Positions 3,093 through 64,000 of a stretch of 64,000 nt of DNA are shown here, piece after piece (positions within the stretch are counted from its first letter, which is position 1; each line of letters starts with the position of its first letter). Origin of the DNA: an uncultured Clostridia bacterium (lineage in GTDB: Bacteria; Bacillota; Clostridia; TANB77; CAG-508). Position numbers and translations under genes: made by a program. The notes under the pieces were generated by a model. That model did no database searches. It saw only the letters and a program-made list of their open reading frames with translations, and was not told where the DNA came from. The DNA lies in contig CANQTX010000006.1 of assembly GCA_947626885.1 (NCBI GenBank), positions 7,025 through 71,024 of the forward strand. Reading direction: 5' to 3'.

Positions 3093-4094
3093 TTAAAATA
3101 TTCTTAATATATCATTATACGATACATATAATGACAACAACATGAGTAGTGTAAAACCTGCAGATTGAATTCCTATTTCTACTTCTTCTTTTAAAGCCTT
3201 GCCACGCATTCCCTCTATAATTAATAACAATATCTTTCCACCATCCAATGCAGGAATTGGCAATAAATTAGTTACACCTAAAGATAAAGATACAAGGCTC
3301 AATAAATATAAGAAATGGTAGACACCGTTGGTTTGTACAGCCATCTCAGAAATTCCAATCGGCCCCATCATTTGGTTTGGTTTAACATTGCCTGTTACTA
3401 ATAATTTTAGGCTGTCTCCTATAGAAGTAACAAAATCTACTGTTTCCCAAAAAGCATAGTATATATTGTTTTTTAACGTTTTTTCTTTTAATTGTACACT
3501 AATACCTAATAAATAGGTTCCATCAAAATTTGTAGGTTCTACTTCTACTTCTTTTTTCTTTCCTTCTCTTTCAATTTGTAATATGATCTTTGAACCATCT
3601 GATGTTCGCATCACTTTATCGATATCTGATTTTAATCTTGTATTTTCTCCATTAATGGCTACTATTGTATCTCCTACTTGAATACCTGCTAACTTTTCTT
3701 TACATTCTGGTAGAATTTCTCCTATTGTGGTAGATACATTAATACCTGTTATAGCTGTTAAAGTAAAGTACACAAGTACAGCAAAAATAATATTGACAAT
3801 TGAACCAGCTGCCACTATAGCAATTCTTGGTAAAACTTTGGCTTGACTGAAAGATCCTTCTTCCTCTATTCTTTCTGCTTCTCCCAACATATCCACATAG
3901 CCACCAAAAGGTATCGCTCTCAACGTATATTTGGTTTCTTTTGTTTGTTTTGTTATTATTTTCGGCCCAAATCCAATAGAAAATTCATTCACTTTTATTT
4001 TGAATGCCTTTGCCACTAAAAAATGACCGCCCTCATGAATAAATACTAAAAATCCTAATAAAAATATAATTTTAAGTGCACTTACTAAAATCAA
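3093..4094 (-). CDS. rseP: RIP site-2 metalloprotease (M50 family, RseP/RasP)
   Basis: HEGGH (HExxH) in the first TM helix, a PDZ-like central segment and the NLLPIPALDGG motif. The position after cdsA is conserved. Confidence 0.85.
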   Translation of the reverse strand: MILVSALKIIFLLGFLVFIHEGGHFLVAKAFKIKVNEFSIGFGPKIITKQTKETKYTLRAIPFGGYVDMLGEAERIEEEGSFSQAKVLPRIAIVAAGSIVNIIFAVLVYFTLTAITGINVSTTIGEILPECKEKLAGIQVGDTIVAINGENTRLKSDIDKVMRTSDGSKIILQIEREGKKKEVEVEPTNFDGTYLLGISVQLKEKTLKNNIYYAFWETVDFVTSIGDSLKLLVTGNVKPNQMMGPIGISEMAVQTNGVYHFLYLLSLVSLSLGVTNLLPIPALDGGKILLLIIEGMRGKALKEEVEIGIQSAGFTLLMLLSLYVSYNDILRIF

Positions 4095-4104
4095 TGATTT
4101 CCTC

Positions 4105-4920
4105 CTATAAAAACATCGTTAGTAAACAGTATGCAAATGGTGCTATAAACATGACACTATCAATGCGATCCATCATACCACCATGACCTGGAAACAATTT
4201 ACTAAAATCTTTTATGTTAAAATATCGTTTCACAACAGAGGCTGAAAAATCTCCAATTTGACCTATGATACTTAATACAAATCCTATAATTGCAATTGTA
4301 CTATAAGAAATGTGATATCCTAAATATTGGTTAAGAAAATATGTAAAACCAATATTAATAGCCACAGAAGCTATTGTACCTGCTATACACCCTTCTACTG
4401 TTTTATTCGGACTAATTTTGCTCAATTTTCTCTTTCCAAAGTTTTTACCAATCAGATAAGCAAAAGTATCTGTTCCCCAAGCCGCAAAAATAATATACCA
4501 TATCAATATTTTCCCTGAAATAGCCCCTTCTATTCCATAAGTAAGTGGTAAAAATGCTGTAAAACAAATAATGTAAGTAATTCCTACTAGAGTAAACGCC
4601 ATATCTTCAAATGTTATTTTCATATCTGTTATGATAACATGTAAAAATAAAACAAAGAGTAAACATGGTATAGACAACATCAGAATATAGAATAAAATTT
4701 TTATAGGTACCATGTGCAGGCAGGCCAAACTTGCAGCACAAATATATCCTACCCATGAAATAATATGCACCTTATGGGATGCACATTTACTATATTCATA
4801 AAATCCTACTATAGCTATCATTGCAAAAATAAAGTCCATCATATATTTATTGCCTATAATAAACAGAATGATAACAATTGGCAATCCAATTATAGCTGTT
4901 AATAATCTTTTTAAATTCAT
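4105..4920 (-). CDS. cdsA: phosphatidate cytidylyltransferase
   Basis: Polytopic 271-aa protein with the CdsA signature SPNKTVEG...FPGHGGMMDRIDS. Shows uppS-cdsA synteny. Confidence 0.85.
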   Translation of the reverse strand: MNLKRLLTAIIGLPIVIILFIIGNKYMMDFIFAMIAIVGFYEYSKCASHKVHIISWVGYICAASLACLHMVPIKILFYILMLSIPCLLFVLFLHVIITDMKITFEDMAFTLVGITYIICFTAFLPLTYGIEGAISGKILIWYIIFAAWGTDTFAYLIGKNFGKRKLSKISPNKTVEGCIAGTIASVAINIGFTYFLNQYLGYHISYSTIAIIGFVLSIIGQIGDFSASVVKRYFNIKDFSKLFPGHGGMMDRIDSVMFIAPFAYCLLTMFL

Positions 4921-4941
4921 TTCTTTTTTCCTTCTATGTTA

Positions 4942-5649
4942 TTAATTTGCTCCAAATTTTCTATTTCTTTTTTTATACACAGTAATAGCTTCTTCTAAAT
5001 CGTTTTCTGTAAAATCTGGCCAATATTTTTCTAAAAATAGAAACTCTGTATAAACAGATTGCCAAGTTAAAAAATTACTTAATCGCATTTCATTACTTGT
5101 GCGAATAATGAAATCTGGATCTGGTATATCCTTTGTATAAAGATGATTTTTTATCGTTTCTTCTGTAATGTTTTCTATATCTGTTTTTCCTTCTTTTACT
5201 TCTTGTGCTATTTCTTTCACTGCCTTTAATATTTCTGCTCTACCGCCATAGTTTAAAGCAATACTAAATACTGTTCCTGTATTATTTTTTGTTCTTTCAA
5301 CAGCATTTTTGATACTTTTTTGCAAACCTGGTGCCAATATAGTAGTATCTCCTAAAACTTTTATTTTTATATTTTCTGTATCAGCCTTTTTAGCATAATC
5401 ATTCAAATAATTCTCTAATAAAAGCATTAAAGCGCTTATTTCTTCTTCACTTCTTTTCCAATTTTCTGTTGAAAAAGCATACACTGTTATGTATGCTAAC
5501 CCTATTTGATTAGCATATCTTACAATTTTCTCTAATGTTTTAGCACCTTCTTTATGCCCAGAATTAACTGATATCTTTTTTTGTTTTGCCCATCTTCTAT
5601 TACCATCCATAATAATAGCAATATGTTGTGGCAGAAATTGTTCTTTCAT
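4942..5649 (-). CDS. uppS: undecaprenyl-diphosphate synthase (cis-prenyltransferase)
   Basis: Motifs HIAIIMDGNRRWA and RTSNEMRLSNFLTWQ; 235 aa. Confidence 0.9.
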   Translation of the reverse strand: MKEQFLPQHIAIIMDGNRRWAKQKKISVNSGHKEGAKTLEKIVRYANQIGLAYITVYAFSTENWKRSEEEISALMLLLENYLNDYAKKADTENIKIKVLGDTTILAPGLQKSIKNAVERTKNNTGTVFSIALNYGGRAEILKAVKEIAQEVKEGKTDIENITEETIKNHLYTKDIPDPDFIIRTSNEMRLSNFLTWQSVYTEFLFLEKYWPDFTENDLEEAITVYKKRNRKFGAN

Positions 5650-22284: not shown

Positions 22285-23839
22285 TTAATTAGCTGTCTGA
22301 AGTACAACCTGTGTATATTCGGACTTACAATCCTTTCCTTCAATTAAATTTTTTGTAGCTTCATCTTGCACATAAATCGTTGACGATTTCGCTAATCCTT
22401 CAAATGCACCAGACTCTGCCTTTGTAAGTTTACCTTGAATAGTTATTGAACTAAGTCTTGAACATTCAATAAATGCAGCGCTTTCAATGGCATAAACTGC
22501 ACTCGGTATCGTAATACTCTCCAATCCAGAACAGTGTGAAAAAGCATACTCCCCCAAAACTTCCAACTTATCAGGTAATTGAATACTCTTTAATTTTTCA
22601 CAACCTACGAATAGACCATCCGGAATAGTTTTCCATTCGTTTGGTAGAGTTATATTTTCCAGATTTACGCAATACTTAAACGCTCTATGCTCCACTGTTT
22701 TAACTGAGTCAGGTAGATCAATGGTACTCAAGTTAGAACATCTAAAAAATGCGTAGAATCCAATTTTTACCACTGACTCAGGAATACTGATTTCTTTCAG
22801 GTTTGTACAACCTTGAAAAGAATATGCACAAATTTCTTCTACTCCATAAGGTATCGAAAATGTTTCTAAATGAGATGAAGAAGGAAATTTAATCAGTTTT
22901 TTCCTGTCATGACTAAATAGAACACCGATCAATATCAACAAAATTGTGATTGTTACTTCCCACACTGATATACTCCAATCCAGCACATTCATCAAAACAA
23001 TATTTTCCCAAAGATTCTAATGATTCAGGAAGAACCACACGTTTAAGAGTGGAGCACCCCAGAAAACAATAGTCACCTAGTTGAACTAGACCTGACGGCA
23101 AAACTATACTTTCAAGTCTGTAACAATCTTGGAAGCTTCGCTCCCCTATGCTTTTCACCGAGTTTGGTAAAGCAATTGTCTTAAGTTTCCCAAAATCGTA
23201 AAAAGCACTCGCCTCGATTTTCTCAAGGTGAGTAGGAAGAATCACTGTATCTATATCATTTTTTAACCAATCTATCGGACTACTGCTCCCAATTTTAATT
23301 GACCTAACCACATGACCATTTATTTTATCAGGTATGATTAGATATTTTGTAATTTCTCCAAGAAAAAATCCTCCTGCCTCCTTTTCATAATATACACCAA
23401 TATTCTTATCTTCTACAAAGCCTTTAATTTCGCCAGTCGAAATGTCAAAATTAAAATAATTTTCTGGCGCGCATGTTACTATTTCTGTTTCCGTAACATT
23501 TCCACTATTATCATAGTGATATAATTTCACATTTTTACCATCTGCATCATATTCTGCAGCTAAATAACCATTCTCTGTTGCTGTTACAGATAACCCTTTT
23601 TGTTGTAGTGCTCTTGCATAAGCATCTCCACCTTCATAATTTGCCATAAAGTTATCCATTTGCCATTGTTCATTTGCTTCTGCTTCTTTATATTTTGTTA
23701 CTGCATCTTGTGCTCTTGTGATAATTCCATTGTCTCCTAATACTAAACTTAAACTCACCCCTGCTAAAATTAGTAAAACAATAATCGTTACTACTAATGC
23801 TACCAATGTGATACCTTTTTCATTTGCATTGTTTTTCAT
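22285..23839 (-). pseudogene. surface protein with a prepilin-type N-terminal signal and BspA-type leucine-rich repeats, interrupted by a 1-nt frameshift near 22927
   Basis: Track ORFs 22913..23899 and 22285..22995 overlap in different frames. Frame A ends NFVDIDRCSI*, while frame B reads LILIGVLFSHDRKKLIKFP. Removing one base in GAT-C-GGT restores NFVDIDGVLFSHDRKKLIKFP, the canonical dGvLfskDkkkLi.yP unit of this repeat family. The likely start is the ATG at 23839 (AGGAGG RBS), giving MKNNANEKG/ITLVALVVTIIVLLILAGVS. Confidence 0.65.
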
Positions 23840-23865
23840 CTTTTTCCTCCTATTTTTTATCGACT

Positions 23866-23896
23866 TTTTTCGTAAAGTATAAAACTTTACGAAAAA
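23866..23896. repeat. 31-nt hairpin repeat, copy 1 (13-bp perfect arms, loop ATAAA on the plus strand)
   Basis: TTTTTCGTAAAGT-ATAAA-ACTTTACGAAAAA. The reverse complement of its 25-nt core (23869-23893) matches 24023-24047 at 24 of 25 positions. Confidence 0.8.
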
Positions 23897-23981
23897 CAAA
23901 AAAGATAAAAAAGCTTAATTTATTAACTTTTTTATCTTTTTCGTTTAAAAAATTTTTCATCAAATTTTTATTCTAAAATCC

Positions 23982-24010
23982 TTGACTATTATAAGAATTA
24001 TAGATATCAT
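23982..24010 (+). promoter_or_regulatory. sigma-A-like promoter pointing away from the LRR gene
   Basis: TTGACT (23982-23987), a 17-nt spacer, then TATCAT (24005-24010). There is no plus-strand gene downstream. It runs straight into repeat copy 2 followed by a T-tract. Confidence 0.5.
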
Positions 24011-24019
24011 AAATGTAGT

Positions 24020-24050
24020 AAATTCGTAAAGTTTTATACTTTATGAAATT
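24020..24050. repeat. 31-nt hairpin repeat, copy 2 (loop TTTAT on the plus strand, opposite orientation to copy 1)
   Basis: AAATTCGTAAAGT-TTTAT-ACTTTATGAAATT, followed by TTTTTTATTTT. It lies 2 nt after the histidine kinase stop codon. Confidence 0.8.
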
Positions 24051-24052
24051 TT

Positions 24053-25393
24053 TTATTTTGGCAAACGAATGGTAAAAATTGTTCCTTTGGGTGTATTATG
24101 ACTTGCTTTAATCGTTCCTCCATGGGCACTAACAATAAAACTTGCTATCGAAAGTCCTAAACCACTACCACCTGTTTCTCTATTTCTTGCTTCATCTTCT
24201 CTATAAAATCTTTCAAAAATACGTTTTAATCCTTCATTACTTATACCAATCCCGGTATCCTTTATTTCTATCACACATTTATTGTCCTTCATCCATGTGT
24301 TAATTTCTATACTATCTCCCTCTTCCGTATATTTAATAGCATTATCTAACAAAATAATCATCAATTGATATATTCTATTGGTATCAATTTGAATATCTCC
24401 TTTACACGCTAAATTTTGTATCATCTTCTTGTTCTGCAATTCTGCTATTTCTATATATGGCTTTACCAGTTCTTCTATAAAATTATCTATATTAACAATT
24501 TCTTTTTGTAGTTTCATTGTTTTGCTATCTGCCCTTGTTAACAGCATTAAATCTTTTGTTAATTTTGTTAGACGTTTTGTTTCATTTAAAGTAAGCATAA
24601 TTTCTTCTGATTTATCGATAATTTTTGCATTAGGTTCTTGCAATAACAATTCTTGTTTTGCTTGAATAATAGTCAATGGCGTTCTTATTTCATGCGATAC
24701 ATTTTGCACAAATTCCATTTGCTTTTCCATGTTTTCTTGTAAAGGCTTTAAGGTGTGCTTAGATAAAATAAAGCTTGCTATAATAGATAATACAATACCT
24801 ATTATCACTGCATAAGCAATAATACTCTCATAATTTTCAATCAGTTTTTTCTCACTATCAACATTAATTAATAGTTGTACAAACCTATCAGTACTATCAC
24901 CATCATAATCCAATTTGAAATTAATTCCCCTATAATGATAAGTTTCTCCAATTTCTAAATGATAAATCTTACGAAATGTTTTTTCTTCTCTATTAAAGTT
25001 TTTGTTAAAATCTGCTATATAATCTTCTAGTTTTCCTAATTCATCTTGATTTACTATATTTTGATTTTCATCTCTTAAAATCATCACAATTTTTGGATTT
25101 TTTATTTGCCTTGTTAAAACAAAATCTTGATATCCTCTTATTCCTTGAGTCAAAATATTATCACTATTCCTTTGATTTTCCGTTGGAAATGAAAAGAAAA
25201 AAGTCGTCTTTAAATCTAGTTGCTCTAAAAGTTGCATATTTTCTTTTAATTCTGTATCAACAGAACGATACGTGATATGTCTCACCATAAAAAATACAAA
25301 AATGCCAAATACAAAAAATATTATTGCAAAAACAACAATATGATAAATAGCATGCAATATTAACTTTCTATTAAACATTTCTTTTTCTTCCAT
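24053..25393 (-). CDS. sensor histidine kinase (two TM helices, ~150-aa extracytoplasmic loop)
   Basis: H-box VSHEIRTPLT, N/G boxes (LLDNAIKYT, DTGIGI, GGSGLGLSI); 446 aa. Confidence 0.85.
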   Translation of the reverse strand: MEEKEMFNRKLILHAIYHIVVFAIIFFVFGIFVFFMVRHITYRSVDTELKENMQLLEQLDLKTTFFFSFPTENQRNSDNILTQGIRGYQDFVLTRQIKNPKIVMILRDENQNIVNQDELGKLEDYIADFNKNFNREEKTFRKIYHLEIGETYHYRGINFKLDYDGDSTDRFVQLLINVDSEKKLIENYESIIAYAVIIGIVLSIIASFILSKHTLKPLQENMEKQMEFVQNVSHEIRTPLTIIQAKQELLLQEPNAKIIDKSEEIMLTLNETKRLTKLTKDLMLLTRADSKTMKLQKEIVNIDNFIEELVKPYIEIAELQNKKMIQNLACKGDIQIDTNRIYQLMIILLDNAIKYTEEGDSIEINTWMKDNKCVIEIKDTGIGISNEGLKRIFERFYREDEARNRETGGSGLGLSIASFIVSAHGGTIKASHNTPKGTIFTIRLPK

Positions 25394-60669: not shown

Positions 60670-61551
60670 TCAGCTCTTCTTCTCTCTTGCCTTTGTATTC
60701 TTCAAAATACTTGTTATGATAATCCCTATTATACCGCACAAAACAAACCATGTTCCGTAATCTGCTATAGTATATAGTATTTCTTTTATAATCGTAGTTA
60801 TCGAATTACTTAATGAAGCTGTTAATACTATCCTATTATCAATATCTATATGACTAAAAACGAATGATTTTCCAATTTTTAATAAAATGCCAGTTGTTAA
60901 TAAGGAAATACTAACAAAACGAATTCCCATAAGAACATCTTTAATATTAAGTAGTATTATAGAAATAAAAACCATTACTAAAAAAAACAGAGGAGCATAT
61001 TTTAAATGCACATATATGGGGATTATTTTATTTAAGGTATCTTTTGCTATTTTAAGACCTGATTCAGAAACATTAAAATTCTTATAATATTCTTTCATCA
61101 TTAAATCTTCAAATTCTTGAACATTTTTTTCTCCTTGTTTATTTAATATTTTTCCCTCCGATACTAAATAATTTTTTATTTTTGTATCTAATTTCTCTTT
61201 AACTTGTTGCTCACTTATTACAATATCTTTATCTTCATATATATAGTCAACAATAGAATTTACATCCGATTGAATCATTTCCTCAGTATATAAATCCTTT
61301 ATCATTTCCTCAGGTAATCCTGACTGATATCTATAGTTTTCAAATGCATTTTGAATTTCTCTTGAAATTTGCAAATAATATTCCGTTTCCTTTAGTTTCT
61401 TTAAGACATATTCTTTGTTTAATATCGTGGTAGATGCTAGATGAAAAACAATAACAACTATTATAATGATAACTAATAAAAAGGATAGTATTAAATTGCT
61501 TATCATGTTAAGAAACTTCATTTCTACTTTTTCTCCTTTTAAAAGATTCAT
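60670..61551 (-). CDS. hypothetical membrane protein (293 aa)
   Basis: One N-terminal TM helix, a ~150-aa extracytoplasmic charged domain and about four C-terminal TM helices. Its start overlaps the sortase stop (ATGA). Confidence 0.5.
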   Translation of the reverse strand: MNLLKGEKVEMKFLNMISNLILSFLLVIIIIVVIVFHLASTTILNKEYVLKKLKETEYYLQISREIQNAFENYRYQSGLPEEMIKDLYTEEMIQSDVNSIVDYIYEDKDIVISEQQVKEKLDTKIKNYLVSEGKILNKQGEKNVQEFEDLMMKEYYKNFNVSESGLKIAKDTLNKIIPIYVHLKYAPLFFLVMVFISIILLNIKDVLMGIRFVSISLLTTGILLKIGKSFVFSHIDIDNRIVLTASLSNSITTIIKEILYTIADYGTWFVLCGIIGIIITSILKNTKAREKKS

Positions 61552-62162
61552 TCTTCTATTAAATTGGCATATACAACATACCTTTGCGATGCATACCCTA
61601 TATTATGAATAGGATAACAAGTATATATCATTAAAATTTCTTTATCTTTTTGTATTGGTACTTCACTTACTTCTGATTCTTGTATAATCTTGGTATCATA
61701 TATTTTGTAAGTAAAATTTCCATAGGTTGTTTCTATTACTATTTCATCTCCTATTTGAGCTTTTGGTAAATTGGCTAAAAACGTTTTAAAATTATGTCCT
61801 GCTAAAATCACGCTTCCTCCCTCCCCTGGAAAATAAGAAGTATTATCATGTGCAATGCCACTTTTTAAAATTGTGTAAGAAGCCCCATAGTAAATGGGTA
61901 AATTAACATCAACACTATCAATTTTTAACGTAGCATATTTACTTCCATAGGTTGGATAATTTATTAAAACACCGTTTTTTAAAACTGGATTAACTAATTC
62001 TACCTCTTCATTTTGAATGGTTATCCTTTTTATAAGACTTGTTGCCATATCAAATTTTTCTTTGCAAGTCTTCATTACTATATAGCAAATAATGGATACA
62101 AATAAAAAAGCAACTATTGTTGATATAATAGTTGCTTTTAAAATTTCAAATATTCTTCTCAT
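61548..62162 (-). CDS. sortase-family transpeptidase (class uncertain)
   Basis: N-terminal TM anchor, catalytic His context VILAGHN, Cys in LMIYTCYP (TLxTC variant) and a downstream Arg (SQRYVVYA). Confidence 0.75.
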   Translation of the reverse strand: MRRIFEILKATIISTIVAFLFVSIICYIVMKTCKEKFDMATSLIKRITIQNEEVELVNPVLKNGVLINYPTYGSKYATLKIDSVDVNLPIYYGASYTILKSGIAHDNTSYFPGEGGSVILAGHNFKTFLANLPKAQIGDEIVIETTYGNFTYKIYDTKIIQESEVSEVPIQKDKEILMIYTCYPIHNIGYASQRYVVYANLIEE

Positions 62163-62378
62163 TTATTGTACTCTTTTTTACTAAAATAGCAATGGCAACT
62201 ATTGCTGAATTTATAAATTGATTCACTTTTTCTCCTTTTCAACTATCTTTCATAACTATTTATAGTTTACCATTTTTTCTATCGTATTATTAAATTTTTT
62301 TCTTCTATTTTTTGTCTATTTTTATATAAAATTGTTTTAAATTTTTGAAAATTTATCTCGAAATTTTCTTAAAATGAC

Positions 62379-62407
62379 TTGCACTTTTTTGGTTTATATG
62401 GTATCAT
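62379..62407 (+). promoter_or_regulatory. possible promoter of tRNA-Trp
   Basis: TTGCAC (62379-62384), a 17-nt spacer ending in TGG, then TATCAT (62402-62407), giving an extended -10, about 20 nt upstream of the tRNA. Confidence 0.45.
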
Positions 62408-62426
62408 TTTTATTGTTAATTTATCT

Positions 62427-62501
62427 AGGGGTATAGTGTTAATGGTAGCACATCGGTCTCCAAAACCGCCTGTGAGGGTTCGAGTCCTTCTACCCCTGCC
62501 A
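62427..62501 (+). tRNA. tRNA-Trp (anticodon CCA), CCA encoded
   Basis: AGGGGTATAGTGTTAATGGTAGCACATCGGTCTCCAAAACCGCCTGTGAGGGTTCGAGTCCTTCTACCCCTGCCA. Acceptor AGGGGTA/TACCCCT, anticodon loop CTCCAAA, T-loop GGTTCGAGTCC. Confidence 0.9.
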
Positions 62502-62504
62502 CCA

Positions 62505-62536
62505 AAAAGCTAGATTTGAATAGATTTCTAGCTTTT
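62505..62536. terminator. bidirectional terminator between tRNA-Trp and the convergent pilin-signal gene
   Basis: AAAAGCTAGA / TCTAGCTTTT: 10-bp arms, 12-nt loop, A/T tracts on both sides. Confidence 0.65.
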
Positions 62537-62563
62537 ATTTCATTCAAGTAAAGCCTCAGAAGT

Positions 62564-64000
62564 CTATTCATTCTCTATTAACCAGCCTGTTTCCGCATTT
62601 CCTTGAATTAGCTTAGCACTTAAAGAAACTACGGGGCGAAGGGCTCGAGTGTCGTTGCCAATAGTGGTGGAAGAGTAGAACATGTGGCTAGCATTCACAT
62701 TACCAAAATCCACAAAGCGCACGCAAAAGTCACAATGGCTCGAGTACGCATGGATACAGCGTGAAGCAACCCAATAAGAATTAAAAGATGTACTTGGAAA
62801 AATAAACTTATAATTTATGTTTGAATCTCCTGTTCCGTTTCCTTGAAATCCACTCTGTAAATCCTCTTTACTTTTAGTCCAATATGTTTGATATGCTTGG
62901 ATGCTTGTGATTGCTTGTACGTATCCGTCTGTTGCTGTAGTATTTGTTACTCCATCTATTAATGTACTAGTACCGTCTCTTGCTGTTAATTCATGCTGGT
63001 CACTTAAGCCTAATCCTTCTGATTTTTCATTTCCATTAATCACACTCTTGTCCTCTAATTCATATATTAGTGGGTATTTACTGTTACTTTGGTCATATGC
63101 ATTGTTTGCCTTTTCTCCATATTTTATTGTATTAGAATATTCATGTGCTGTTTTTAACGCTTCTTCCGTCATTCTTCCCTCTATGTCTTCTATATTAATA
63201 CTTCTTCCTGTAATACCTTTACTTGTATCTCCATATAAACTATTACATGCTTCATTTAGCAATTTTACTCCATTATTATATCCCTGTGCTTCTCCTAAAT
63301 ATACCTTTCCAGTCGTTGGATTCGTTGAGATTAATTCAACCTTTTTTGTTTTTTCATCTATAGAAAATACCTTCCAGTCTGTTACTGTCATATTGTTATT
63401 AGTATTAATTGCTTCCCCAGTGGCATTGCCTTCTCCGCAATATAAATTTCGATCACTTTGACCTTGTCCCAAAGATGAGCAATATTCCGCTCGCCAGGTG
63501 TATTCTCCACTTGGACTGTATGTTACGGTATCTCCAACTTTTAATCCTTCATCTATTGCTGTTGGCTCTGTTTCTCCTTCTATTGTTACGACTCCATTAG
63601 ATTCTATTATGAAGTCTACGTTTGTATTATTATCATCACTTGTGTATGTTCCTGTTATACTCCCATCTTCTTCTCTACTAATATTACTTGCTTGTCCTCC
63701 TGTTAAGTATTGATTATTAAACTTGTTTGCAATTGTGTCAGGTGATAAATATTCACTTTTTATCAAGCTCGTATTCTTTGTCCACTCGTTTAAATAATCT
63801 GTTTCACAACTCGCCCATGCCATTGCTATATCTTCTTGCGCTGTCGCTTTTCGGTTTTCTGTTACCGCTGTACTTGCTTTGGTTATGACACCATTATTCC
63901 CTAGCACTAAACTTATACTCACACCTGCCAAGATTAATAAAACGATTATGGTTACTACCAATGCTACTAATGTGATACCATCTTCTCTTCCTTCGTTTTT
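62564..64000 (-). CDS. large secreted/anchored protein with a prepilin-type N-terminal signal (the extreme N-terminus lies beyond the right window edge)
   Basis: Reading beyond the track ORF start gives ...KNEGREDG/ITLVALVVTIIVLLILAGVSISLVLGNNGVITKA, paralogous to the N-terminus at 23839. The frame is open to position 64000. Markedly GC-richer than the window average. Confidence 0.65.
   Translation of the reverse strand, partial: KNEGREDGITLVALVVTIIVLLILAGVSISLVLGNNGVITKASTAVTENRKATAQEDIAMAWASCETDYLNEWTKNTSLIKSEYLSPDTIANKFNNQYLTGGQASNISREEDGSITGTYTSDDNNTNVDFIIESNGVVTIEGETEPTAIDEGLKVGDTVTYSPSGEYTWRAEYCSSLGQGQSDRNLYCGEGNATGEAINTNNNMTVTDWKVFSIDEKTKKVELISTNPTTGKVYLGEAQGYNNGVKLLNEACNSLYGDTSKGITGRSINIEDIEGRMTEEALKTAHEYSNTIKYGEKANNAYDQSNSKYPLIYELEDKSVINGNEKSEGLGLSDQHELTARDGTSTLIDGVTNTTATDGYVQAITSIQAYQTYWTKSKEDLQSGFQGNGTGDSNINYKFIFPSTSFNSYWVASRCIHAYSSHCDFCVRFVDFGNVNASHMFYSSTTIGNDTRALRPVVSLSAKLIQGNAETGWLIENE

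Follow-up and report, generated by a model that had tools for sequence, protein, structure and literature searches.

A lox-like site pair enclosing a probable invertible promoter upstream of a leucine-rich-repeat surface-protein gene in an uncultured Clostridia bacterium

The locus considered here lies upstream of a leucine-rich-repeat (LRR) surface-protein gene of an uncultured Clostridia bacterium, within a stretch of 64,000 nucleotides (assembly GCA_947626885.1, contig CANQTX010000006.1) that is referred to below as the window. It raises the question of why a well-formed promoter match in front of this gene points away from it, and why this promoter is enclosed by two opposite copies of a palindromic 25-nt sequence. 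A first-pass annotation, made from the letters of the window, had suggested a phase-variation switch. In our analysis, positions 23869-24047 very probably represent an active invertible promoter (inverton), which was sequenced in the OFF state. Sites of the same consensus elsewhere invert physically, with flanks that remain colinear at 99-100%, and they are linked to a tyrosine recombinase; both observations support the reading as an invertible promoter.

The 179 bp at 23869-24047 are enclosed by two lox-like inverted sites of 25 nt, for which the window pair gives the consensus TTCGTAAAGT-N5-ACTTTAYGAA. The pair and the segment between its members are as follows.

23869-23893: inverted repeat copy 1, the predicted gene-proximal recombination site, TTCGTAAAGT / ATAAA / ACTTTACGAA, with two 10-nt inverted arms and an asymmetric 5-nt centre
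23894-24022: predicted invertible interior of 129 bp; start-to-start spacing of the sites 154 bp
24023-24047: inverted repeat copy 2, the predicted gene-distal recombination site, TTCGTAAAGT / TTTAT / ACTTTATGAA

Copy 1 agrees with the family consensus at all 20 arm positions (0 mismatches), and copy 2 has 1 arm mismatch, a C>T variant in the outer arm; this C>T (G/A) variant is frequent throughout the site family. The reverse complement of copy 1 is identical to copy 2 at 24 of 25 positions, and the centres ATAAA and TTTAT are reverse complements of each other. The earlier coordinates of the 25-nt core thus proved exact and its asymmetric loops do indicate opposite orientation; the bracketed segment, previously put at about 123 bp (23897-24019), actually measures 129 bp. 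A repeat search returned the pair as 26-nt arms with 96% complementarity and 129 nt between them, and each copy is a palindrome by itself, with 13-bp arms broken only by the 5-nt centre. When the whole window was searched for the site allowing up to 3 mismatches, copies 1 and 2 were the only matches, and none was found in 100 dinucleotide-preserving shuffles.

The strongest evidence comes from loci at which both orientations of a segment were found, here named by our locus numbers. A locus with the centres AACGT/ACGTT and a spacing of 153 bp is present on four human-gut contigs (L052, L048, L049 and L054). L052/L048 and L049/L054 share flanks that are 99% colinear, whereas the bounded 178 bp are 100% identical in reverse; in the comparison with L054, 126/128 positions are identical in the reversed direction as opposed to 31/128 in the forward direction. 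One variant base, located at the outer end of the inner arm, is carried along with the interior, whereas the outer arms keep their position; the exchange thus lies between the arms. The interior carries a promoter match, TTGACA-17-TATACT, which in L049 is directed at downstream genes, among them that of a 1946-aa surface protein, and in L048 at the 3' end of the recombinase gene next to it. In addition, a 1.4-kb recombinase cassette is inverted in L038/L051 relative to L044/L057, with flanks that are 100% and 99.96% identical, and further inversions between related species were found for L010 and L026 and for L001 and L006. Each orientation is backed by independent assemblies. An assembly artefact is unlikely, because the assemblers end with k-mers that should be longer than the 25-bp repeat.

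Several side observations concern these loci. The cassette of L010 (2043-5040) has an extra insertion of about 1.6 kb, so that 2973 bp lie between its sites compared with 1371 bp in L026 (1073-2468). In the L001 cassette (6586, 7711), which is inverted relative to L006, the centres AAAAT and GATTA do not match and one of the sites, with 4 mismatches, is degenerate; this cassette may be locked or decayed. The end of L003 and the start of L019, which belong to one metagenome-assembled genome (MAG), fall exactly at a site and have complementary centres, and L015 and L027 overlap by one 55-mer across a site. Both arrangements match what a population of mixed orientation would produce, which is only suggestive.

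The extent of the site family was determined by scanning one genome per GTDB species with the pattern TTCGTAAAGTN5ACTTTAYGAA, which yielded 33 loci where about 2 are expected by chance according to our own arithmetic for uniform base composition. A metagenome scan with the perfect-arm pattern TTCGTAAAGTN5ACTTTACGAA added 27 more contigs. The 33 genome loci are nearly all in MAGs of gut or rumen Clostridia, Bacilli and Selenomonadaceae. Partner sites were sought allowing up to 4 arm mismatches and were recovered in most loci. In an unbiased tally of pairs, 53 had reverse-complementary centres, 0 had direct centres and 15 were others; in L032 and L159, 12 of these others arise as cross-pairs, in which sites of neighbouring but separate switches are combined. 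The non-redundant set comprises 45 pairs with 34 different centres. The arms of partner pairs are conserved, and the centres are reverse-complementary in every pair though they vary by locus. The pairs fall into two size classes, a short one of 137-421 bp (18 pairs) and a long one of 1113-2973 bp (27 pairs), and the spacing of 154 bp in the window fits the short class, which spans 137-302 bp plus one pair at 421 bp. As a negative control, a looser pattern with 16 fixed bases matched unrelated phyla by chance, with neither a partner site nor a recombinase. The first-pass annotation had listed a generic single-copy hairpin scattered after many genes as an outcome that would speak against a switch; this does not apply, because the window holds this one pair only and the pairs in other genomes are reverse-complementary in 53 cases and direct in none.

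A separate group of matches shares the identical 25-mer TCCGTAAAGT-CTGCG-ACTTTACGGA (L096, L121, L123, L131, L134, L143 and L153). These loci include several non-Firmicutes MAGs (Proteobacteria and Desulfobacterota, among others) and have neither a partner site nor a linked recombinase. The shared 25-mer probably belongs to some conserved gene or RNA that has nothing to do with the inverton family.

A gene with a Phage_integrase domain is located beside or between the sites in 19 of the 33 genome loci and 20 of the 27 metagenome loci. In the long class, a single gene is enclosed that encodes Phage_integrase and Phage_int_SAM_3 domains with the usual catalytic motifs, in a constant layout of site, 70-200 nt, gene, 50-70 nt and site. 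Such self-enclosed recombinase genes, which are inverted between assemblies, occur for instance in L012 (3474-4688), L018 (73-1507), L022 (2203-3527) and L038 (969-2371) and in about 20 others, and a promoter scan inside the long cassettes found no consistent internal promoter. The site-associated recombinases score below every curated NCBIfam cut-off for Xer, integron and FimB/E-type enzymes. Against the models of the 'tyrosine-type DNA invertase' (PRK09870/PRK09871) they reach 19-28 bits, with cut-offs of 221-222, and are thus not of the FimB/FimE type. Two other known systems were considered and rejected. Xer/dif chromosome-dimer resolution is contradicted by the best Xer-type score, 98 bits against XerA with a cut-off of 220, and by the occurrence of the sites in inverted pairs, several per genome, instead of one dif site per genome. 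A serine invertase of the Hin/Gin or Bacteroides Mpi kind does not apply either, as the linked recombinases carry only Phage_integrase and Phage_int_SAM_3. The closest solved homologue is an 'Int protein' (PDB 6EN0/6EMY/6EMZ, E about 1e-15), which we take to be the integrase of the conjugative transposon Tn1549.

The elements between and around the two sites of the window can be placed in this context.

23982-24010, plus strand: sigma-70-like promoter match TTGACT-17-TATCAT, with the end of the -10 element 12 nt short of copy 2
23894-23946, minus strand: terminator-like hairpin with a 20-bp A/T-rich stem (23894-23913/23927-23946) and a 13-nt loop; on the gene-sense strand, a T run comes after it
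23840-23868, minus strand: fixed leader between copy 1 and the ATG at 23839, with an AGGAGG ribosome-binding site at 23846-23851
24048-24059, plus strand: T-rich tract 3' of copy 2, overlapping the convergent histidine-kinase gene at its stop codon (24053-24055)
22285-23839, minus strand: controlled gene with a pilin-like hydrophobic N-terminus and BspA-type leucine-rich repeats, Pfam LRR_5 on both open reading frames (ORFs)
Upstream, same strand as the controlled gene: OmpR-type response regulator and histidine kinase, with 5 nt between copy 2 and the stop codon of the kinase gene

As sequenced, the promoter points away from the LRR gene. It is the sole match of the sigma-70 type on either strand of 23600-24300, so that no comparable minus-strand promoter exists there for the gene in its present orientation; the first-pass annotation had likewise noted the direction of the promoter and had found no comparably good one on the minus strand. 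The hairpin at 23894-23946, which had been missed before, lies directly upstream of copy 1 and the gene, and equivalent hairpins are found at the same place in L004, L032, L158 and L159. The start codon at 23839 follows copy 1 after 29 nt. This arrangement corresponds to the general layout of the short segments: 9 of 11 have their best promoter match directed outward, with its end at a distance of 9-34 nt from one site, and in 7 of these a gene with a ribosome-binding site begins 19-30 nt past a site. In L008, the promoter faces such a gene, which is the ON layout. In the window, in L004 and in all L032, L158 and L159 copies, it faces away and a terminator-like hairpin adjoins the gene-proximal site. 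With an outward promoter, a hairpin at the other end and a gene start 19-30 nt past the site, the family layout agrees with the assignment of the sequenced state as OFF. Transcripts starting from the outward promoter in this state may be stopped at the T-rich tract 24048-24059. The intergenic RNA fold is strong (z = -8.7); it is not evidence for an RNA element, because the inverted repeats themselves produce the fold, and an Rfam search returned only sub-threshold, spurious miRNA matches.

Further evidence is provided by paralogous switches of the same lineage. On the related rabbit-gut MAG contig L032, three genes of this kind follow one another in tandem, and a separate switch of 153-154 bp precedes each of them. 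The interior of the window switch is about 80% identical to the interiors of these switches, and its leader is almost identical in two of the three paralogues. Look-ups with two paralogues led to further OFF switches on L158 and L159, whereas two other paralogues, one of them sought in NCBI only, had no record. In an alignment of six paralogous switches, the arms are invariant and six different centres occur; in the four switches with both sites present, the centre is matched in the partner in all four, and wherever a switch covers the -35 and -10 elements, these too are conserved. Since changes in the centre are compensated and the promoter is conserved yet useless in the present orientation, the alignment argues for continued selection for recombination and promoter use, and the switches would thus still be in use. 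The association of gene and switch is lineage-specific, because an alignment of the pilin-like N-terminus against genomes found 80 more distant genes in other Clostridia MAGs, none of them with a site. A scan for the conserved leader gave no match in metagenomes and only L032 in the collection of GTDB-species genomes.

In the mechanism that we propose, each end of the element would be a complete lox-like core site of a tyrosine recombinase, with 10-nt arms TTCGTAAAGT and ACTTTACGAA around the asymmetric 5-nt centre. The arms would bind the enzyme and strand exchange would take place in the centre, which would have to match that of the partner, a logic that is known from Cre/lox, FLP/FRT and lambda Int. 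Because the partner centres are reverse complements, recombination would invert the 129-bp interior instead of deleting it. In the OFF state, the promoter would be directed away from the gene and the hairpin would be positioned between upstream transcription and the gene. After inversion to the ON state, the promoter would lie 12 nt from copy 1 and transcribe through the site and the AGGAGG leader into the gene, resulting in a leader of about 65 nt that includes the site and the ribosome-binding site. The hairpin would then be upstream of the promoter and could insulate the switch from read-through of the kinase operon. The recombinase would act in trans and be encoded beyond the window. We infer that the window copy still flips, that its predicted promoter is functional and that strand exchange occurs in the centre.

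A number of observations weigh against an active switch. At this locus, a single orientation was seen in two assemblies: the window and the ENA contig L034, which was located through an exact look-up of the response-regulator protein, are identical and have the same orientation. Exact-protein look-ups with the histidine kinase and the LRR protein matched nothing and thus gave no copy in the opposite orientation. The six related switches (three in L032, one in L158 and two in L159) all have the promoter facing away from the gene. The promoter is a consensus match only, and shuffled sequences give 4.0 +/- 1.8 matches per 700 bp, so that one match by itself is not significant. A terminator scan of 23600-24300 returned 0 hits, as the A/T-rich hairpins fail its G+C criterion. 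Of the earlier suggestion that copy 2 and the adjacent T-tract look like a terminator, the T-rich tract stands and the terminator itself found no support in the scan. The controlled gene is split by a +1 frameshift near 22925-22930 into the ORFs 22913-23839 and 22285-22995. According to the frame analysis, one extra base is present (GAT CGG TGT...) and the intact frame would read ...DIDGVLFSHD..., a point that the first-pass annotation had missed. The L032 paralogue at 3712-5038 is also frameshifted, at another position. No recombinase gene lies in the 64-kb window, and none is evident on the short related contigs.

These points would fit a relic switch, that is, a descendant of an inverton whose recombinase has been lost or silenced and which is fixed OFF before a decaying gene. 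We regard this as unlikely, although every copy seen in the lineage is OFF, the controlled gene is frameshifted and the window contains no recombinase. As the gene is frameshifted both here and in an L032 paralogue, the locus could be decaying; the frameshifts could be true decay or consensus errors of the MAGs. In a large and mostly silent family of surface genes, moreover, a consensus assembly is expected to be mostly OFF. What speaks against a relic is the preservation of the parts needed for inversion: both sites are intact (0 and 1 arm mismatches) with matching centres, the centres of the paralogues differ yet match their partner wherever both sites are present, and the promoter boxes are conserved though useless in the present orientation.

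A second alternative is an element that transposes and does not invert, namely a miniature inverted-repeat transposable element (MITE) derived from an insertion-sequence (IS)-like unit of inverted repeat, recombinase and inverted repeat, with an outward promoter. The long class does resemble an IS, with a compact recombinase gene between 25-bp terminal inverted repeats in many taxa, the short class is of MITE size, and the closest solved homologue of the recombinases is the 'Int protein' taken above to be the Tn1549 integrase. However, copies within one genome or contig have their own centres, so that their ends are not identical, the variation between assemblies is an inversion in situ with unchanged flanks, and no pair of a filled and an empty site was found. 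Tyrosine recombinases acting on full palindromic sites with inverted centres invert the DNA between them and do not excise it. Membership of a MITE or IS family was not found, target-site duplications being impossible to judge in the A/T-rich flanks. Taken as a description of the present element, transposition is very improbable; the element may have been mobile in its evolutionary past.

That the palindromes are only hairpin terminators or operators of a dimeric regulator, for example the adjacent OmpR-type regulator, and that nothing inverts, as the first-pass annotation had cautioned, is the least probable alternative and can practically be set aside. In its favour are the near-perfect palindromy of either copy, the position of copy 2 between the histidine-kinase stop codon and a T tract, and the adjacent two-component system. 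Against it, the consensus tracks the tyrosine recombinase and not a two-component system across dozens of unrelated loci, segments between same-consensus sites are in opposite orientations between assemblies, and neither role gives a reason why the centres vary freely and still are reverse complements in every partner pair. The terminator scan had no hit, the stems of the site palindromes contain G-C at 2 of 10 pairs and so fall short of the G+C-rich stem with a U tract of an intrinsic terminator, and OmpR-family regulators usually bind direct repeats.

The probable invertible promoter can be compared with known switches. Functionally, the window switch would be a classical invertible promoter, and by the domain and score tests described above it is not a FimB/E, Xer or serine-invertase system. 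It resembles fimS of E. coli, which is served by FimB/FimE, in that a short promoter segment would be inverted by a tyrosine recombinase and turn a surface structure ON or OFF; fimS has 9-bp repeats and a segment of 314 bp. The likeness to fimS and to the Clostridioides difficile switches, drawn in the first-pass annotation, holds for the proposed function, i.e., promoter inversion and surface genes; the site-associated enzymes, with 19-28 bits against cut-offs of 221-222, are not of the FimB/E type. With the RecV switches of C. difficile (cwpV, flgB and cmrRST), the window switch shares a Firmicute host and, as proposed, a tyrosine recombinase acting in trans. The repeats of these switches differ between switches, and we know of no palindromic consensus that they share; unlike the window switch, they act partly through termination in the leader RNA. 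One trans-acting tyrosine recombinase, RecV, flips several promoter or leader segments of surface and motility genes in C. difficile, as described, for example, in PMC12282940.

The closest family layout is that of the mpl genes of Mycoplasma penetrans, in which, as here, a multigene surface-protein family has one small switch per paralogue. The mpl elements reportedly have 12-bp repeats and a length of roughly 135 bp. The window family differs in its full palindromic sites of 25 nt with a free, partner-matched centre and in its host, a spore-forming low-GC Firmicute and not a mollicute. For the mpl genes, which encode P35 lipoproteins, PMC10502178, citing Horino et al. 2003, describes an invertible promoter per gene, mostly silent copies and tyrosine recombinases acting in trans.

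In site architecture, the element is similar to Cre/loxP, where inverted arms surround an asymmetric spacer and the orientation of the spacer decides between inversion and excision. Identity of the lox spacer between partners is required for exchange, and the matched, copy-specific centres found here mirror the engineered orthogonality of the lox511/lox2272 type. However, the geometry is 10-5-10, or 9-7-9 when the conserved T and A are counted, as opposed to 13-8-13 in loxP, and the site-associated recombinases are not Cre-like in sequence and would have a natural chromosomal regulatory role. The long class, in turn, is comparable to Salmonella Hin and phage Mu Gin, since the recombinase gene is inside the inverted segment. 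Unlike the enzyme here, a tyrosine recombinase of the Phage_integrase fold, Hin and Gin belong to the serine recombinases and depend on an enhancer and on Fis.

A survey of the hCom2 gut community from 2025 describes an inverton group 139 with 33 invertons detected by experiment, 32 of them in Clostridia, from 17 strains (PMC11892184). Nearly all have a nearby tyrosine recombinase (invertase group 35), and in one example the repeats measure 25 bp and are separated by about 230 bp (PMC11892184). Compared by description and not by repeat motif, this group may be the same family. Neither the matched variable centres nor the enclosure of recombinase genes in invertible cassettes, both found for the window family, is mentioned in PMC11892184. 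Full-text literature searches with the arm sequences returned only primers and unrelated matches, and concept searches yielded no description of matched variable centres or of a self-inverting recombinase cassette.

The variation of the centres allows a further, tentative proposal, which we consider possible but somewhat doubtful: the 5-nt centre could serve as a natural address code, in which the arm consensus is shared and each switch has its own partner-matched centre and flips independently. One family of tyrosine recombinases would then recognise a single arm consensus across Clostridia, Bacilli and Negativicutes, and promoters and the recombinase cassette would flip independently, without deletion or inversion of the DNA between switches. 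If true, nature would have its own version of the engineered heterospecific lox sites, together with a self-inverting master recombinase gene. Should the centres confer orthogonality, they would also supply natural, mutually non-reactive sites with their enzymes for synthetic biology in Gram-positive bacteria. Regardless of the address code, the combination of the 25-nt consensus and reverse-complementary centres allows invertons in Firmicutes MAGs to be found from sequence only, without read data, and this signature would also explain some contig breaks in metagenomes. For an uncultured, low-GC, spore-forming gut Firmicute, the locus points to a phase-variable family of pilin-like/LRR surface proteins with one switch per gene, and thus to the kind of bet-hedging already described for Bacteroides, C. 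difficile and mycoplasmas.

The controlled protein is one member of a multigene family whose N-terminal 60 aa are almost invariant, and two further members are located on the same 77.5-kb contig beyond the window. The first-pass annotation had assigned a pilin signal to it. The prepilin cleavage/methylation motif of type IV pilins and pseudopilins normally has Glu at +5, and this residue is missing in the sequence KGITLVAL of the controlled protein, so that the pilin signal could not be upheld. The N-terminus has no match in Pfam or NCBIfam, and only matches to LRR_5, LRR_8 and HupY-type LRR models were found for the protein. Another gene of the family begins near 63979 on the minus strand (region 61548-64000), its upstream part, together with any switch there, being cut by the window end, and a sortase gene (61548-62162) is situated just downstream of it.

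The window as a whole is ordinary chromosomal DNA of a low-GC spore former with frr, pyrH, uppS, aspS, SpoIVA and GerA/B/C. None of its ORFs of at least 100 aa has a recombinase domain, and tblastn of three site-associated recombinases against it gave nothing (best E 0.23), in agreement with the earlier statement that it contains no recombinase gene.

Two minor observations remain from the site family. In the Selenomonadaceae MAG RGIG3549, three contigs (L002, L013 and L021) have the same centres AGGTT/AACCT, which is the sole apparent exception to the pattern of one centre per switch per genome. L002 and L013 are probably a strain mixture, because they are 86% identical including one flank, and L021 resembles a derivative of 421 bp that lacks the recombinase gene. 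In L022, a TnpB/Cas12f-like gene (955-2184; OrfB_IS605 and a Cas12f1-like TNB domain) adjoins the inverton, and in the right flank of L016, from about 2880, the inverton is adjoined by a gene whose N-terminus is similar to that of the L022 gene, as compared by eye only.

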